From IMG/VR virus record IMGVR_UViG_3300031912_000006: 20,000 bases of DNA. The stretch is one strand, 5' to 3'. The translations under genes were made by a program, and so were the position numbers. The stretch is from an uncultured virus (IMG/VR IMGVR_UViG_3300031912_000006). Lineage: Duplodnaviria; Heunggongvirae; Uroviricota; Caudoviricetes. The first letter of the stretch is position 1; each line of letters starts with the position of its first letter. A model generated the notes under the pieces. That model had not been told where the DNA came from. It saw only the letters and a program-made list of their open reading frames with translations, and made no database searches. Shown here piece after piece: positions 1-5,486 of this stretch.

Positions 1-736
1 CCGCGTGGACGCCCATACCACGGTAATTACCTTCCAATCGGACGGCATTGGCAATTGTCGGATACGCATCCAAAACCTCTTGGGCTCTTGGGAATACGGC
101 AAACGTATCCTCAAGAGAATTGCCCTCCCGCGAGTCTCCACCACCACGTTCAATGATAAGACGCTTGACTTTGTCTGCCTCCCAACTTGGGATGTGATAG
201 ACTCGTGCGACATCGTCTATGCTGTTCTTTCCCTTGTATCTCATGAAGTTTGCGACTTTACCCGTTTTATCTGCGCCGTAACGACTTGCCGCGTAGTCGA
301 AGACTTCTTGTCTACGCTCATCATCAAAGTCCAAGTCGATGTCGGGCAAATCGTTTCGGCTTGGGTCGATGAACCTTTCAAAAAGCAGACGGTCAAATAC
401 CACGGGATCAATCTCCGTGATACGGAGAAGATAGCATACGACGCTAGCAGACGCTGACCCACGTCCAGGTCCAACCGCAATACCATGGTCCTTAGCCCAC
501 CTGACAATGTCGCTCGTGACCAGGAAGTAGTCAACGAAACCTTTGCCAATGATAAGCTCCAACTCCGCTTCCACTCTGTCGATGTATAGCTGGGGTCGGT
601 TGAGCATACTTTCGTTTTGCGTGATGTCAAGGCGATAATCCCATCCACAATTTAGCCAGTGCCGCAACAGCTTTACTGCCTCATCAGACGGTTTAAGATT
701 GATCGCGTACGTAGTGAGATCAGGTTTTACGACCAC
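1..736 (-). CDS. dnaE: DnaE-type DNA polymerase III alpha, catalytic portion (runs off the left edge; missing from the ORF track)
   Basis: Manual translation is open from GTG 736 (GAGGGGAAGGA 9 nt upstream) to base 1. It contains GFVDYFL, GPGRGSASAS, ITEIDP, LLFERF, catalytic PDIDLDF and RLEGNYRGMGVHA. Confidence 0.95.
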   Translation of the reverse strand, partial: MVVKPDLTTYAINLKPSDEAVKLLRHWLNCGWDYRLDITQNESMLNRPQLYIDRVEAELELIIGKGFVDYFLVTSDIVRWAKDHGIAVGPGRGSASASVVCYLLRITEIDPVVFDRLLFERFIDPSRNDLPDIDLDFDDERRQEVFDYAASRYGADKTGKVANFMRYKGKNSIDDVARVYHIPSWEADKVKRLIIERGGGDSREGNSLEDTFAVFPRAQEVLDAYPTIANAVRLEGNYRGMGVHA

Positions 737-1668
737 GGTAGCCAGTCCTTCCCCTCAATTGGATACCGCAGCGGTTCTACCTTTGCGAGCTTCACGTCAC
801 AACGATCAGCTATCACCCCGGTGTTCGAGAGTGCTTGTAACGCACCATCTTCCGTTAACCCCGTGCCCAAAAGGTCTTGGTACACGCGCTCGTCGCTCTC
901 TGGTATGTCTAGTGTTACGTTGTACTCCCAAGCCGCTTCTGTGGCGGATACGCTAGAACCACGGTGAGCCGCATGAAGAACCTTCTGCATCTCGTTGTCT
1001 CTAGCATAGACATAATGACAGTCGCTCGTCGCAGCAAGTTGTGCTCCGGTGTCTCTGGAAATGCGCTCGTAGGCCTGATTGATCTTACAAGTTCGACGCA
1101 GCGCAGGAAAGCGCTGAGTTTCAAGGTAGTACCTGTCGCCAAATACCTCTTGGTACCATTCCACGACCCCAAGGGCACGCCGATATTGCTCTGGGTCGAA
1201 TCTGAATCCTGGTGCACCGTAAGACTTTCCACCAAAGAGCGTGCAGGCAAGCACCGAATCAGAACATCCAGAGAGTACAATGAGTCCGTCACTAAACTCC
1301 TCAAGCATCTCAACGTGAATCGTCGGAAACCGTGTCTTGCTGGTTCTCCCAATGGTTTTCCACGACTCAACGACTAACTTGTTCAGGTTTGAATAACCAG
1401 CCTGCGTCATGGCTAGGATGGTCTGATGGCACTTCCTGCGCTCGTTGGGCGGGGCAACGTAACCCTCAAGGCCGAACAGCGGTTTGATGCCAAACTTGGT
1501 ACACGCCTTCTCAAGCTGTACATGGCTCGACACGTTACCTCAACCATGTTCCGTCAACGCCATAGCTTTCATACCAAGCGTTGCACAACGCTCAACATGT
1601 TCTTCAGGCAAACCATAACCATCTCCATATGAAAAAGTCGAATGGTGGTGTAACGAAACATAATCCAT
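727..1668 (-). CDS. dnaE: PHP domain of DnaE as a separate ORF, interrupted by an in-frame TGA at 1540-1542
   Basis: ATG 1668 has a GAGGTG SD and reads MDYVSLHHHSTFSYGDG...MALTEHG*GNVSSH. The same frame continues as the 727..1533 ORF with PHP motifs GLEGY, H-x-TILA, LIVLSGC, YYLE and ATSDCHY. Confidence 0.9.
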
Positions 1669-1673
1669 TTATA

Positions 1674-2123
1674 TCACCTCCCACGATGATAACGGCGGGT
1701 GTTATCGCCTGGTGTTATTTCTTCTAAGTGATCTGTGTTCCAACAATTTTTACGTTCACACATATGATCAACTGTCATGCCTCGCGTTAAAGTTTCGCCA
1801 TCTAAGATTAACGCTAACCTGTGTATTCGCACAAATTTACCGTGATACCAAATCTGTTGATACTTATGAATTTTGTCTATACCATCATATAGCCAACACG
1901 GAGTATCAAAATTTGGATGTTTAACGACATCCGTTCTAGCCCAAAGCCTATCAAGTACAGGCTGTTCCTTTCGCCCAGCACGCTCCTTATAGACACATAC
2001 CCTATCTGAATGAGCAACTACTTGCCCATCGCCAGTGCGGTAGTCTACTGCAGATTCATAATCTGAAAGTATTGGCTCGCAATAGATTCCGGTGTTTATC
2101 GGAGCTTTACTCACGTTCGTCAT
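1674..2123 (-). CDS. HNH (homing) endonuclease
   Basis: PCWLY...HRLA...VDHMCERKNCWNTDHLEEITPGDN is the Zn-loop HNH signature; AT-rich (hand-counted 60-nt lines are 32-40% GC). Confidence 0.9.
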   Translation of the reverse strand: MTNVSKAPINTGIYCEPILSDYESAVDYRTGDGQVVAHSDRVCVYKERAGRKEQPVLDRLWARTDVVKHPNFDTPCWLYDGIDKIHKYQQIWYHGKFVRIHRLALILDGETLTRGMTVDHMCERKNCWNTDHLEEITPGDNTRRYHRGR

Positions 2124-2135
2124 TACGGGTCAATC

Positions 2136-2678
2136 CTAGTCCCTTTTAGCCTGTTTAGGATCGAGTAGGGCTAATAAAAGGTGACCAATTAAGTCCATCA
2201 TGATCTCTGGAACCTGCTCTCCCACAAGAGGTTTGCCATCCCACAACGCCTTCTTCAGCTTACCAACCTTGCGCCACAGGTCAACAAATTGACCTTTAGC
2301 ACCTAGTTTGAACTCATCGAAGTCGTCACCGTAATCCTTGTTCTTATTGAGGAATAGCTCCAACACCTTTGGCAATACGCAGAGTAGAATGCGCTCTGAT
2401 TGTACCGTTGGTGGGTTAGCAATTTCAATCGTGATCAGGCCCAAGCTATGGTTGATGTTATCCGGCTCACCCCAAGCGCGCACACGAATCTCGTGTAATG
2501 GCAATGGATTTGGCTCAACCTCCATGGGCACTCCTGGGTTGGCATTCATCACTTCGCTCATGACTTCAGCGGTAGGTCGTAACCCAGCTTGATCGCGTAT
2601 TACGTCTGCTTGCGATGTGCTTGGATAGCCGGGGTAACCGCGCTCTTCAAGTTTCTTCGCCATGTAATCATCAGTCAT
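2136..2678 (-). CDS. Nucleotide modification-associated domain 1 (Nmad1/DUF1599)-like protein
   Basis: C-terminal KNKDYG...G...WRKVGKL...E...DLIGH resembles the DUF1599/Nmad1 pattern. Confidence 0.65.
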   Translation of the reverse strand: MTDDYMAKKLEERGYPGYPSTSQADVIRDQAGLRPTAEVMSEVMNANPGVPMEVEPNPLPLHEIRVRAWGEPDNINHSLGLITIEIANPPTVQSERILLCVLPKVLELFLNKNKDYGDDFDEFKLGAKGQFVDLWRKVGKLKKALWDGKPLVGEQVPEIMMDLIGHLLLALLDPKQAKRD

Positions 2679-3714: not shown

Positions 3715-3802
3715 GTTCTCTCCCCAAATCGCAATGGAGGCAAAGCCACCCGTGCTTCGTCCACACCATAGGACAACCGCACGGGCAGCTTCGCTCGGAC
3801 AT
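3656..3802 (-). CDS. Possible 48-aa zinc-ribbon protein (not in the ORF track)
   Basis: MSERSCPCGCPMVWTKHGWLCLHCDLG... fills the gap after the SSB-like gene, but has no clear SD and overlaps the next ORF by 59 nt. Confidence 0.4.
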   Translation of the reverse strand: MSERSCPCGCPMVWTKHGWLCLHCDLGRELAKLRQRPNPAPGHDSGAR

Positions 3803-3811
3803 GATTACGAA

Positions 3812-4558
3812 TCAGAACGGTGGACGCTTGCGACTGCCAGACTTGGCTGTCTCCTTGGCGTCTTGCTCGTCGGAGATGTCTTCGTCATCGTCGCCTTCAT
3901 CCTCTTCATCTTCGTAGTCCTCATCTTCTTCGTAGTCCTCCTCATCGTCTTCTTCGTCACCAATGAGGTCGTCATCTTCATCATCGTCTTGCGGCTCAAC
4001 AGCTTTCGGCTTCTCGCCGAGATACGGAAGGTAGCCGGCAATTTCAGGACGGTAGTTGCCGTTCTGGTCTTGGCCTGCGCGAGTGACGATTTGGATCATG
4101 ACTTCACCGTTGGGCGAATTGATCGGAACGCGACCGATTTTGGTGATGTGGGTTTCCTTATCACCGCGCTTGTTCTCAACTCGCTTGTAGTCTGGGCCTT
4201 TGTCCTCATCCCAGAACACGGCTTCGATTGCGCGCTTGGCTCTTTCAGAACCGTCCGTCAGAGCGTGAAGGAATGCGTTGACGAAACCTTGGGACTGCTC
4301 AATGATGTTGAGCCCATCCCAAACCGGCGCACCGTGGTATTCCTCTTTGCCCTTGAGGTTTGCGGTCTGAACCTCCATGAGCAGTCGGATACGCGGCTTG
4401 CCCTTATTCACGGTGTTGGAGGCAATCCTGATGACCTCCATGCGCTTAACCTTGGCGGGCCAGCTGCCTTTCGGCAGTTCCGGTCCATCGTAGCCCAGCC
4501 CACCGGCCTTGCTTGGCGGCACACCCTTACCGGATATGTCCCACTTCATCTTAGGCAT
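3812..4558 (-). CDS. ssDNA-binding protein-like (DUF669-type) with acidic tail
   Basis: ELPKGSWPAKV N-terminus, long D/E tail ending PPF, directly after the AAA_24 ATPase; start ATG 4558 after GAGGAGGA. Confidence 0.7.
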   Translation of the reverse strand: MPKMKWDISGKGVPPSKAGGLGYDGPELPKGSWPAKVKRMEVIRIASNTVNKGKPRIRLLMEVQTANLKGKEEYHGAPVWDGLNIIEQSQGFVNAFLHALTDGSERAKRAIEAVFWDEDKGPDYKRVENKRGDKETHITKIGRVPINSPNGEVMIQIVTRAGQDQNGNYRPEIAGYLPYLGEKPKAVEPQDDDEDDDLIGDEEDDEEDYEEDEDYEDEEDEGDDDEDISDEQDAKETAKSGSRKRPPF

Positions 4559-5486
4559 CTGTTTCCTCCTCAATCCCAACCATGTCGGCTGCCTCGTCGA
4601 CAGAGTCTTGCGTTGCCTTCACCAGACTCATTGGGTTACTTTCCTTTTCACCGTTGCGGTTGCTACGGCGATTGCGCTTGTTGGGTACAACCCGCCCAGG
4701 CGCAGGCTGCTGCGGTCCTGCTTCTAACAGTTCCCGTAGCTCTTTGAGATTGCCAATATGGCCTTCTCGTATAACAGTTTTCGGCTCCAAGCACCGCGTA
4801 CGGTCCTTGGCCATGACGGTTTTGCTTCCGCGCCACTGGATTACGCGATACTCCTCATAAACCGCGTGGCCGTCTTCATCAGTTCCCGTCCTACGCCGAA
4901 CAACTCGCATGTTGCCGAAGCTCGTCATCCAGCTGGCCGTCGCCTTGGCGTACTGCGTGCCCTTGCCCTGGAGCATTGGGATCACGACCTTGTCGCCTTC
5001 TTCGTTCTCATCCTCCATCTGGAGCGCGGTGTAGAGAACGTTACACGGTAAAGCGTTGAAGCTCTTGACAAGTCGCCGGAACTTCTCGTAATACGGCACC
5101 CAGTCCTGAAGCTGCGGTACGTCAGGATCACGACCAGGATTTAGCTCAACGCCTTGGTCAAGGATATGCCGCATACACATCTGCTGCATTTCCGTAAGGC
5201 TGTCTAGCACAACCCAATTGAACGGTATCGGGTCTTGCTCGCGCAGCCAGTTGTAGGCATCTTGAATGTCGGCCCACGTGTGGATTTTCCACTTCATCGC
5301 CGTTGAGCCAAATCGCTTGGCGCTCAACGTGCCGTTGTCTTCCGGCGCGATGAACAGCACGTCATCATCAGACCCTGCGAACACGGTCTTGCCCACGCCG
5401 CTGTCGGCGTAGATCATGAGGTTGACGTACTCATCCTCATCCTGTAACGAGATGATCTCGTCAGGAAATTGCACTTTCATTGTCAC
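4551..5486 (-). CDS. AAA_24 family ATPase (Sak4-like recombination ATPase)
   Basis: Walker A IYADSGVGKT, Walker B VVLDSLTE, AKDRT motif; lies between the nuclease and SSB genes. Confidence 0.85.
   Translation of the reverse strand: MTMKVQFPDEIISLQDEDEYVNLMIYADSGVGKTVFAGSDDDVLFIAPEDNGTLSAKRFGSTAMKWKIHTWADIQDAYNWLREQDPIPFNWVVLDSLTEMQQMCMRHILDQGVELNPGRDPDVPQLQDWVPYYEKFRRLVKSFNALPCNVLYTALQMEDENEEGDKVVIPMLQGKGTQYAKATASWMTSFGNMRVVRRRTGTDEDGHAVYEEYRVIQWRGSKTVMAKDRTRCLEPKTVIREGHIGNLKELRELLEAGPQQPAPGRVVPNKRNRRSNRNGEKESNPMSLVKATQDSVDEAADMVGIEEETDA

Follow-up and report, generated by a model that had tools for sequence, protein, structure and literature searches.

What becomes of a phage replication gene that carries a stop codon within a conserved motif? 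The question is raised by the window, a 20,000-nt stretch of DNA from an uncultured member of the Caudoviricetes (IMG/VR IMGVR_UViG_3300031912_000006), in which the gene for the PHP subunit of DnaE is interrupted by a TGA next to an HNH gene. A first-pass annotation saw the locus as a candidate homing-endonuclease cassette coupled to a ribosomal stop-hop. The reading put forward here, to which about an even chance is given, is likewise a homing-endonuclease cassette with a stop-led gap that the ribosome would cross by a GGU-to-GGU hop.

Layout of the Interrupted PHP Gene

Re-reading of the minus strand confirmed that the PHP gene starts at ATG 1668 behind a Shine–Dalgarno (SD) sequence and runs in frame through GGT-TGA-GGT, as described in the first-pass annotation (Table 1). 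The proposed take-off and landing codons, GGT 1545-1543 and GGT 1539-1537, match. After the insert, the frame continues through AAC GTG TCG (1536-1528) to TAA 729-727. Each PHP piece exceeds the PF02811 cut-off (37.3 and 65.5 bits vs 26.4), and the HHH, GDG, EH, E and DCH motifs, which presumably bind metal in the PHP subunit, are present in the translations, in agreement with the earlier statement that both halves keep their metal-binding motifs. The 42-aa piece aligns with positions 9-50 of phrog_7513 and the piece from GTG 1533 with positions 52-325, so the two pieces abut. Gene callers predict them as separate proteins, P0003 (42 aa) and P0008 (268 aa, start GTG 1533). The PHP remainder is 74–85% identical to proteins of the Onyinye clade (Leopard) and of locus L007.

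Further downstream, the polymerase core begins at GTG 736, in a different frame from the PHP ORF, which ends at 727; the earlier annotation had not mentioned this split. The core gene leaves the window and reaches the end region of the contig. The same overlapping two-gene layout is found in Onyinye (gp82/gp84) and L007; it is normal in this clade and not decay.

Table 1. Features of the interrupted PHP locus (window coordinates; minus-strand features read from high to low numbers).
Feature	Position	Strand	Remarks
DnaE polymerase core gene	2..736	minus	GTG 736-734; Pfam PF07733, E 1.8e-57; overlaps PHP stop
Remainder of PHP subunit gene	727..1536	minus	AAC...TAA 729-727; Pfam PF02811, E 9.2e-18; GC3 0.58
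Shared cassette or co-conversion tract (HNH, 5' PHP, insert)	1400..2214		letter-identical in run X23
Out-of-frame 44-aa ORF	1413..1547	minus	from ATG 1547; ORF list
Rival restart signal	1531..1541	minus	SD-like GAGGT (1541-1537), 3-nt spacer, GTG (1533-1531); read from sequence
Six extra bases	1537..1542	minus	placement ambiguous within 1537-1545; from alignment with 7 relatives and 14 insert-less loci
Proposed landing codon GGT	1537..1539	minus	resume codon AAC 1536-1534 directly 3'
In-frame TGA stop	1540..1542	minus	read from sequence
Proposed take-off codon GGT (Gly42)	1543..1545	minus	preceded by CAT (CAT GGT 1548-1543); read from sequence
PHP codons 1-42, MDYVSLHHHS...ALTEHG	1543..1668	minus	Pfam PF02811, E 4.5e-9; GC3 0.31; cassette part
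PHP gene Shine–Dalgarno GGAGG	1677..1681 (1681-1677)	minus	8 nt before ATG 1668; read directly
Free-standing HNH endonuclease gene, 149 aa	1674..2123	minus	stop TGA 1676-1674; GC3 0.35
Upstream resident gene, function not assigned	2136..2678	minus	Onyinye gp81 position; phrog_10271

Occurrence of the Insert

The insert is identical in loci L004, L005, L006 and L020, and five assemblies carry it in total. They belong to a single genotype (1 SNP in 6 kb) and thus show that the insert is real, without bearing on its age. Among the soil runs, all of them in the form of contigs, 23 DNA runs from 18 samples contain at least half of the sampled words of the stretch. Three DNA runs were aligned with the stretch and the insert was seen in two: a contig of run X12 over 1402-2168 has it with 0 differences, a soil contig of run X23 has it as well, and the X20 contigs are without coverage of the site.

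A sequencing or assembly error, or a recoded TGA (Gly or Trp), might be suspected in a metagenome contig, and under code 25 GGT-TGA-GGT would read GGG. The doubt about whether the 6 nt are real, raised at first pass, is answered by their identity across the five assemblies and in the contigs of two further soil runs. As to recoding, code 11 gives a normal gene density, and TGA, the most frequent stop here, ends 41 of the 90 ORFs of at least 120 codons. Phages related to that of the window infect Actinobacteria, a group not known to recode TGA. An alternative code or suppressor tRNA was rejected: TGA is a normal stop, and no tRNA was found in the window or the 54-kb contig. Error and recoding are refuted as far as contigs allow, and their probability is considered negligible.

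Fourteen related loci are without the six bases. Onyinye, a Mycobacterium phage, has an uninterrupted gp82 (...ALTEHGNVSSH); the other 13 loci are L007–L013 and L021–L026, and some of the 14 may be one phage held in two collections. All 14 read TEHGN or TDHGN with exactly 6 nt fewer, which bears out the claim that removal of 6 nt gives the canonical T[DE]HGN. The same 6-nt difference was obtained in an eight-sequence alignment of the window and seven relatives. In run X24, a relative reads ...TEH directly before GGT AAC; the run is an RNA library with only this insert-less relative, so it has no bearing on expression of the insert allele.

Scans of IMG/VR with degenerate and exact patterns, the PHP piece, the HNH protein and the HNH alignment found no carriers beyond the same three contigs, and the first PHP-piece scan also returned seven of the insert-less relatives (L007–L013). 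A single metagenome scan yielded one locus with the insert and six without. Genome contigs gave no match to the HNH alignment, and the five pattern matches there were chance occurrences in unrelated bacterial genes. No cultured phage with the codon-42 insert was among the matches listed (60 of 251 and 60 of 362 records). Spans of +6 and +9 nt in WhoseManz, Turuncu and GuyFagieri proved to be ordinary residue differences in uninterrupted genes.

The HNH Gene and the Cassette Junction

The HNH gene ends 132 nt upstream of the PHP-gene TGA, close to the 130 nt given at first pass. It matches generic HNH PHROGs only (best phrog_826, E 2.3e-16, plus five others), and its Pfam HNH_3 score of 19.3 bits is under the 24.8 cut-off. 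The D-H...N...H-L-E motif is invariant in 9/9 HNH homologues, and the C-terminus is common to all. A PDB profile search with the HNH alignment gave 0 matches at E up to 1, and Vivi2-type HNH matches were set aside as unrelated loci. The gene is located between the gene at the position of Onyinye gp81 and the PHP gene. This intergenic site is without an HNH gene in Onyinye and L008–L013 and is occupied by other HNH genes in L007 and L021. The insert occurs in 0/14 related loci without this HNH type; the suggested co-occurrence of insert and HNH gene is thus found, confined to this HNH family.

Composition and identity both break at the site. From 0.35 in the HNH gene and 0.31 in PHP codons 1-42, GC3 rises to 0.74 in codons 43-84 (Fisher p = 1.7e-4). 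The X24 relative has about 95% identity downstream of the site and 8/30 bases different upstream. In run X23, the flanks of the tract 1400-2214 are diverged, with 22 differences in 1292-1399 and 30 in 2185-2369. The HNH gene is a presence/absence polymorphism at one site and moves with the flanking markers of this tract. The gap is at the junction of foreign low-GC3 and resident sequence and is linked to this HNH family. In the earlier reading of the locus, the cassette part is well supported, by the linkage, the composition and identity break and the tract in another background; support for the proposed hop comes from the comparison of sister sites given below.

Sister Lineages and Cultured Phages

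The 42-aa ORF of the window type has four sequence variants, the three others (P0004, P0005 and P0007; 86–93% identical) also ending TEHG-stop. The sister codon-42 lineages (P0004, P0005, P0007, P0016, P0022, P0058, P0100 and P0113) are known from protein alone, and their protein-to-contig links are drawn only from the equal size of the longest contigs. On this basis, P0005 is apparently on one contig with the HNH homologue P0130 and the PHP remainder P0016, and P0004 with P0133 and P0113. The linked HNH homologues are 60–70% identical and the linked remainders 61–72%. P0007 is linked to the remainder P0022 (71%) only, HNH not being seen on its 4180-nt contig. Two further HNH homologues pair with PHP products starting MNGNTSSH (P0100) and LNNGNTSSH (P0058). 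The start, SD and every motif residue (HHH, D, EH) of the 42-codon piece are kept in the four variants while the linked HNH proteins have diverged to 60–70%, which speaks for continued translation and use of the piece.

Analogous stop-led dnaE inserts of 4, 5 and 9 nt were found after codons 10-14 in cultured, viable Mycobacterium and Gordonia phages, mostly beside HNH genes. Leopard has TCT-TAGCC-ACT after codon 10. A Leopard-type site with TAGCT is present in the metagenome locus L021; a second copy of this 5-nt insert was not found in IMG/VR, and the same site is that of cultured Leopard. Aikoy has TAT-TGAAC-GGC and DoobyDoo TAT-TGAC-GGC after codon 14, no HNH gene adjoining the latter. Patos, Ranch, Erutan and Xenia2, for which the sequence was read, have TCC-TAGGTGGCC-TAC after codon 13, and NorManre was assigned to this type by a 100% megablast match. 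The hosts are M. smegmatis for Leopard and Aikoy and Gordonia for Patos, Ranch, Xenia2 and DoobyDoo. Onyinye and Sadboi are intact sisters with neither insert nor HNH. In the database records, the Leopard gene begins at the GTG of codon 25, its first canonical in-frame start, and that of DoobyDoo at the ATG of codon 33. At the sites of Leopard, Aikoy and DoobyDoo, with inserts of 4 or 5 nt, the nearest 10 or so codons contain no canonical in-frame start.

Six sites were read as DNA: the window, Leopard, L021, Aikoy, DoobyDoo and the Patos type. In 6/6, a 0-frame stop opens the insert, so that a stop codon would be in the A site at take-off, and the last 2 nt equal positions 2-3 of the preceding codon, U/C wobble allowed. 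The chance of this stop and triplet-match pattern is 2e-5 to 6e-5, a rough, post-hoc estimate.

These sites bear on two alternatives. The insert might be a scar left by repair where the nuclease cuts; it would inactivate the PHP N-terminus and spread with a self-protecting HNH driver, the phage coping with a truncated PHP protein or no PHP activity. Some DnaEs have a PHP domain without catalytic activity, the insert is exactly at the recombination junction, and the window-type assemblies are one recent genotype. Selfish elements can be costly, and a mildly deleterious MobA element is discussed by Manning and Atkins (bioRxiv 10.1101/2022.08.31.505936). Nevertheless, the genotype is abundant in the soil runs, the 42-codon piece is conserved as described above, and the cultured carriers are viable. 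A stop at the start and a partial codon copy at the end of all six inserts are also unlike a random scar. Such a hitch-hiking null or crippled allele is considered improbable.

Alternatively, a near-cognate tRNA, probably that for Trp, might read through the UGA and lengthen the protein by two residues (TEHG-X-G-N). The insert is in frame, and in many bacteria no stop is leakier than UGA. The extra residues would, however, come immediately behind the metal-binding His, in a motif whose length is constant in the 14 relatives, and the 54-kb contig has no suppressor tRNA. TGA also acts as an ordinary stop, for example in the HNH gene, whose end matches its 8 homologues. The sister inserts of 4, 5 and 7 nt are by their length not repairable by readthrough, and this explanation is regarded as very improbable.

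Crossing the Gap or Restarting Behind It

In the proposed cassette with a hop, the mobile unit would comprise the HNH gene upstream of the PHP gene, its own PHP codons 1-42 and, at the downstream edge, the 6-nt gap, in which a stop codon is followed by a duplicate of the Gly codon. The gap would break the nuclease target in conserved TEHGN-coding DNA and protect carriers. By analogy with the T4 gene 60 bypass, which protects against MobA (bioRxiv 10.1101/2022.08.31.505936), the insert may block HNH cleavage. With peptidyl-tRNA-Gly on GGU and UGA in the A site, the tRNA would detach from its codon and pair again with the GGU lying 6 nt downstream. Decoding would then continue at AAC, 9 nt would specify one Gly, and TEHGN would be exactly restored, the product carrying the junction peptide AMALTEHGNVSSHVQLEK. 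There are precedents for this scheme: stop-hops are functional in synthetic constructs (Weiss 1987, cited in PMC5009743), and in Streptomyces phage terminase genes, which have 7–10-nt gaps after UUA, MS detected a junction peptide (PMC10732093).

Several observations count against the hop. Synthetic stop-hops are reported to be inefficient, at about 1%. As UGA is the commonest stop here, RF2 should compete well against it. No stimulatory hairpin was common to the six sites folded (z = -1.8 for the window and -1.45 to +0.36 for the others), and the window-type assemblies are all one genotype. The triplet match itself could partly stem from the origin of the junction, as a cassette codon followed by the remnant of a resident codon, as in Aikoy. 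Two further points, the GAGGT that arises with the insert 3 nt before an in-frame GTG and the sister remainders with starts of their own (MVEGN..., MNGN...), fit a restart, or a split gene, rather than a landing.

According to this last alternative, translation stops at TGA 1542-1540 and restarts 4 nt further at GTG 1533 aided by GAGGT, and a 42-aa peptide and a 268-aa remainder assemble non-covalently, the peptide supplying the first strand, the helix and the second strand with HxH and EH. The stop, the SD-like GAGGT and the GTG are all within 12 nt, the gene callers give exactly P0003 and P0008, and the Patos type has a GTG directly after its TAG. Among the sister remainders, two begin MNGNTSSH and LNNGNTSSH, and a third begins MVEGNVSSH, from a resident ATG that overlaps with the stop. 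In the 7-nt lineage, as judged from the protein, an ATG matching 1547 appears to be in frame with the remainder (product MVEGNVSSH, P0022), and the stop appears to be next to the gene's own start, as in a coupled split gene. The clade already separates PHP from core with overlapping stop and start, and genes split by homing endonuclease genes (HEGs) are functional in T4 gp39/gp60 and Aeh1 NrdA (bioRxiv 10.1101/2022.08.31.505936). Set against this, the spacer is only 3–4 nt, and a GTG restart loses the Gly43-Asn44 kept in 14/14 insert-less relatives. The remainders P0016 and P0113 are called only from VQLEK or LEGY, which suggests, from protein only, that the stop has no start close by. After the 4- and 5-nt sister inserts there is no nearby in-frame start, and the peptides left are 10–14 aa long. 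The duplicated codon is unneeded for a restart yet present, in full or in part, at 6/6 DNA sites. The GTG 1533 restart is a live rival for the 6-nt form; as an account of the locus, genes in pieces are considered unlikely, though a serious contender.

If the hop is accepted, the window would contain a natural in-frame stop-hop and belong to a widespread, unrecognised class of actinobacteriophage dnaE homing cassettes with 4–9-nt stop-led gaps, a broader claim that is held tentatively, at a little under even chances. In such a class, the gaps would shield the carrier from the nuclease, and peptidyl-tRNA re-pairing would cross a gap of any length or frame.

Comparison with Known Systems

One of the closest known systems is the bypass of T4 gene 60 within the MobA homing element (Huang 1988 and Bonocora 2011, as cited; Manning and Atkins 2022, bioRxiv 10.1101/2022.08.31.505936). 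In both cases, a stop directly follows a Gly take-off codon and is followed by a matching Gly landing codon, the gap is in the conserved metal-site-coding part of a replication gene, and it is linked to and travels with an HNH-type homing endonuclease. Relatives without the nuclease retain the gap, as DoobyDoo does here. Unlike the 50-nt gap of T4, the present one is 6 nt, with apparently no take-off hairpin or known nascent-peptide signal and with no N- or C-terminal extension tails. The nuclease gene is inside the gene in T4 and upstream of the whole gene here, and hop and protection in the window are proposals from sequence.

The synthetic E. coli stop-hops (Weiss et al. 1987, via Atkins et al. 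2016, PMC5009743) have the same layout, with a stop between matched codons (GGT-TGA-GGT) and 9 nt specifying one amino acid. They were engineered reporters, whereas the window has a natural site, conserved with a mobile element; that review describes in-frame stop-hops as unknown in nature. The bypass candidates in Streptomyces phage terminases (phiHau3; Antonov et al. 2023, PMC10732093) are also from actinobacterial phages and also consist of short non-coding blocks (7–10 nt) within a conserved gene, and their MS junction peptide supports the crossing of such short gaps. They differ in the gene concerned and in the A-site codon: instead of a stop, it is UUA, a rare sense codon for which a regulatory role has been proposed; endonuclease linkage is not reported in the available text of that paper. 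In HEG-split genes (MobE in Aeh1 nrdA; T4 gp39/gp60), a conserved enzyme gene is likewise in two ORFs at a metal-binding site in association with a homing endonuclease, and function is kept through a protein complex. There, the nuclease gene lies between the pieces and tails are added, whereas here 4 nt separate the pieces, of which the first has only 42 aa.

Implications

Such genes get called pseudogenes, fragments or N-terminally truncated proteins, and if the hop is true, GenBank records of cultured phages give these dnaE genes truncated or wrong starts. Since cultured carriers exist, the question is within reach of routine mass spectrometry and reporters. To our knowledge, efficient bypassing occurs in a mere handful of systems (T4 gene 60 with its relatives, a yeast mitochondrion and, as candidates, Streptomyces phage terminases), and no natural stop-hop is on record. 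The interrupted PHP gene is probably essential. If the proposed reading is true, minimal gaps of 4–9 nt that lack elaborate RNA signals would serve selfish nucleases as a common and evolvable self-mark, placed inside essential conserved motifs with the protein unchanged. This would bear on how hosts and homing elements coexist and on the limits to frame maintenance in translation.

Insert at the PHP locus

The first-pass annotation had read GGT-TGA-GGT, in frame, in the DnaE PHP motif, and had stated that removal of 6 nt restores T[DE]HGN. Both readings hold: in the PHP-subunit gene of the split phage DnaE, the 6 extra nucleotides are TGA plus GGT. Letter-identical copies of the insert were found in three further IMG/VR contigs (L004-L006) and one metagenome contig (L020). 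These four differ from the window's contig by one SNP across 6 kb and diverge only in its last 190 bases, so they represent one genotype; they rule out assembly error and give no time depth. An artefact or recoding has a negligible probability. The divergent end (contig bases 53949-54140, past window position 1, in and just beyond the 3' end of the core gene) has about 35 differences and a 9-base indel relative to the otherwise identical L004-L006 and L020, and marks a second sharp mosaic boundary.

At least half of the sampled words of the stretch that holds the insert are present in 23 soil DNA runs (18 coded samples). Run comparison used contigs rather than reads, and four runs were aligned to the window: one contig of X12 covers 1402-2168 with zero differences, one of X23 covers 1292-2051 without a gap, X20 leaves the site uncovered and X24 holds a relative only. 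The six bases are absent in 14/14 relatives, although some loci may be one phage in two collections. Mycobacterium phage Onyinye gp82, 93% identical to the window across the first 42 residues, reads ...ALTEHGNVSSH, and TEHGN or TDHGN is uninterrupted in seven IMG/VR loci (L007-L013) and six metagenome loci (L021-L026). The insert is a real, non-random feature.

The window corresponds to bases 32418-52417, read on the reverse strand, of an IMG/VR virus contig 54,140 bases long with an estimated completeness of 76%; every gene considered lies on the window's minus strand. Each PHP piece scores over the cut-off for the Pfam PHP domain, and the two cover positions 9-50 and 52-325 of the PHROG profile phrog_7513. 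The upstream ORF matched six HNH-endonuclease PHROGs (best E 2.3e-16), with a Pfam HNH_3 score under threshold. The break between PHP and core is the ordinary layout of the clade, in which DnaE is naturally two genes: Onyinye has gp82 (PHP, 317 aa), a small gp83 and gp84 (core), and the stop/start overlap in L007 is identical in layout to that of the window, which reads GTGGTCGTAA at 727-736. At least one small ORF lies between PHP and core in Onyinye, in the Mycobacterium phages Leopard and Aikoy and in L008, L009 and L011-L013; none is present in the window or L007. Elsewhere in the window, a 255-aa ORF (3812-4579, minus strand) with a long Asp/Glu-rich tail ending ...PPF recalls single-stranded DNA-binding protein tails; a 337-aa plus-strand ORF overlapping it (3734-4747) is probably spurious.

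Features of the interrupted PHP locus in the window
Feature	Position	Strand	Remark
HNH ORF, 149 aa	2123-1674	minus	ends 5 nt before PHP ATG
Shine-Dalgarno GGAGG	1681-1677	minus	upstream of ATG 1668; read directly
PHP codons 1-42, MDYVSLHHHSTFSYGDGYGLPEEHVERCATLGMKAMALTEHG	ATG 1668 to GGT 1545-1543	minus	read directly
Stop TGA	1542-1540	minus	read directly
GGT	1539-1537	minus	followed by AAC; read directly
GTG	1533-1531	minus	read directly
PHP remainder	open frame after insert to TAA 729-727	minus	ORF map
DnaE polymerase core	start GTG 736	minus	downstream of PHP ORF, in a different frame

Edge of a mobile cassette

Base composition changes at the insert. GC3 values are 0.35 (HNH gene) and 0.31 (PHP codons 1-42), against 0.74 (the following 42 codons) and 0.58 (rest of the gene); third positions are G or C in 13/42 codons before the insert and 31/42 after it (Fisher p = 1.7e-4). 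Identity breaks at the same place. X24 is an RNA library and is uninformative on whether the window's allele is expressed; a contig from it matches window 1222-1539 at about 95% identity and differs beyond. The contig's loose end reads ...GMKAMALTEH immediately ahead of the window's GGT AAC, so this allele is insert-less; it has 8 differences from the window in the 30 bases upstream of the site.

The X23 contigs equal the window letter for letter over approximately 1400 to 2214, a tract that takes in the HNH gene and PHP codons 1-42 with the insert, plus the end of the upstream gene on one side and 140 bases past the insert on the other. Beyond the tract there are 22 differences in 1292-1399 and 30 in 2185-2369. 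Since the flanks differ, the tract is present in a second genetic background, as judged from short metagenome contigs joined by overlap only, and as expected after homing or recombination. On these comparisons, which bear out the proposed pairing of insert and HNH gene, a mobile cassette has its edge at the insert.

In Onyinye the intergenic site ahead of the PHP gene measures 74 nt and has no nuclease gene. It carries two unrelated HNH ORFs in L007 (2080-2870), one of those two in L021 (1-450), and a 134-aa ORF of nuclease-like appearance in L009 (2465-2869). Such varied cargo marks a hot spot for mobile nuclease genes.

Older relatives in the protein collection

The 42-aa ORF matched five proteins. 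Four have the same length and end in ...ALTEHG: the window's own (36 contigs), P0004 and P0005 (93% identity) and P0007 (86%). The fifth, P0006, continues into NTSSH. The HNH query gave nine matches (49-100% identity, all aligned), namely P0128, a 109-aa fragment of the window's own HNH, and eight homologues of 145-151 aa. The PHP remainder gave 288 matches, 120 of which were listed and 27 sequences retrieved.

These lineages are known here from protein alone, and their parts are linked indirectly by equal 'longest contig' values: 63,290 for P0005 (42-aa), P0016 (remainder) and P0130 (HNH); 66,505 for P0004 (42-aa), P0113 (remainder) and P0133 (HNH); 4,180 for P0007 (42-aa) and P0022 (remainder); 8,345 for P0058 (remainder) and P0134 (HNH); and 1,708 for P0100 (remainder) and P0135 (HNH). 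Sequence and pattern scans of IMG/VR and the genome collection did not find their contigs. Provided that these links hold, TEHG-stop is found together with HNHs 60-70% and PHP remainders 61-72% identical to those of the window.

The HHH, D and EH residues are kept throughout the 42-residue pieces, which speaks for continued translation and selection of the piece and against a dead gene. This conservation, together with the viability of cultured carriers, makes a hitch-hiking defective allele an improbable explanation.

The remainders begin MVEGNVSSH (P0022), MNGNTSSH (P0100), LNNGNTSSH (P0058), MQLEK (P0016) and MEGY (P0113). As MVE is the exact +1-frame reading of the window's C-ATG-GTT-GAG, the P0022 lineage should, judged by its protein, have one extra base, which would give a 7-nt gap with the resident ATG in frame.

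The window also contains a 44-codon out-of-frame ORF (1413-1547, minus strand) from ATG 1547 in CAT-GGT, overlapping the TGA as ATGgtTGA. Coupling there would yield a junk peptide with the 6-nt form and the PHP remainder with the inferred 7-nt form.

Sister cassettes in cultured phages

In Leopard an HNH-like gp81 precedes MEYVSLHHHS, which is followed by TAG and a 5-nt frame shift (TCT-TAGCC-ACT); the phage is 100% identical to Onyinye downstream of the insert and unmatched upstream. L021 (TCT-TAGCT-ACC) shares Leopard's site and first 35 bases in a different background. In Aikoy, HNH gp82 is followed by 14 codons and TAT-TGAAC-GGC, and identity with Onyinye begins at the second base of codon 14. 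The Gordonia phages Patos, Ranch, Erutan and Xenia2, read in sequence, have an HNH gene, 13 codons and an in-frame 9-nt insert, TCC-TAGGTGGCC-TAC; NorManre has this arrangement by a 100% megablast match, and in Xenia2 DnaE has diverged downstream of the insert. DoobyDoo, also on Gordonia, has TAT-TGAC-GGC following codon 14 with no HNH gene alongside. Onyinye and Sadboi, the intact sisters, lack both insert and HNH. Only the catalytic stretch is common to the window HNH and its counterparts in Aikoy and Patos, and the HNH of Leopard shares nothing with it, so these are parallel cassettes rather than a single family. Weak tblastn matches of the window HNH within genes annotated as RecA-like recombinase in the Gordonia phages Kabocha, Schomber and Chidiebere hint at an HNH-containing intein or insert.

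GenBank starts of DnaE/PHP lie downstream of the insert in Leopard (L039), Patos/Ranch (L041/L042), DoobyDoo (L044) and Xenia2 (L048), at codon 25 (Leopard), codon 33, another internal ATG or a GTG within the insert; in Aikoy (L038) the start is an upstream, out-of-frame codon. In the records of these cultured phages, the interrupted N-terminal codons with the HxH motif are unannotated.

Six sites were seen as DNA (window, Leopard, L021, Aikoy, DoobyDoo and the Patos type). In each case a zero-frame stop opens the insert, and the triplet ahead of the resume codon agrees in its second and third positions with the sense codon before the stop (U/C wobble allowed); in the window all three positions agree. 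The chance of stop and triplet agreement at six sites is 2e-5 to 6e-5 by a rough, post-hoc estimate. The Aikoy junction suggests that the triplet match can partly be a remnant of the homologous resident codon.

Candidate mechanism

Gaps of 4, 5, 6, 7 and 9 nt would point to a common mechanism independent of gap length and frame. These cases have in common a stop immediately behind a sense codon, a cognate or near-cognate triplet ahead of the resume codon, an upstream piece that is intact, and viable carriers. Peptidyl-tRNA would quit the take-off codon with the stop in the A site and re-pair at the landing triplet, where decoding would resume; in the window, GGU to GGU across UGA would restore TEHGN. 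Stop-codon readthrough would be useless for the 4-, 5- and 7-nt gaps, and at the window's UGA it is very unlikely.

The stop-hop of the first-pass annotation is supported by its layout and the agreement of the six sites. Against it, synthetic stop-hops are weak, and no shared RNA structure was found among the sites folded. Two further points count against it. The insert newly creates GAGGT 3 nt ahead of GTG 1533, a Shine-Dalgarno-like sequence that suits initiation better than landing, and the PHP remainder appears to have its own start codon in several sister lineages. Both favor a two-piece gene with restart at GTG 1533, a serious rival for the 6-nt form that we rate as possible but rather unlikely. 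In Leopard, Aikoy and DoobyDoo restart is not easy: the nearest canonical in-frame starts are more than about 10 codons downstream, and the HxH motif would be lost. Hop and restart could run together in the window's 6-nt form. The GGU-to-GGU hop, rated about as likely as not, is the most probable of these readings.

Stop-hops in engineered constructs are covered by Atkins et al. 2016 (PMC5009743), who state that a natural in-frame one is not known. Antonov et al. 2023 (PMC10732093) report mass-spectrometric evidence that a terminase gene of a Streptomyces phage has a 10-nt block behind UUA bypassed; they also mention a 7-nt case. Excerpts of PMC12646305 mention possible bypass solely for Bxb1 primase genes. 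Full-text literature searches found no published account of such gaps in phage dnaE. According to part of Manning and Atkins 2022 (bioRxiv 10.1101/2022.08.31.505936), the T4 gene 60 gap is part of MobA's mobile element, guards it against self-cleavage and can outlast the nuclease. By analogy with this protection, the window's gap probably breaks the nuclease target in otherwise invariable DNA.

As read from its sequence, the window locus is a short-gap, stop-led new variant of the bypass-plus-homing-endonuclease theme with a candidate mechanism, and the cultured relatives make a mechanism of this type directly testable.
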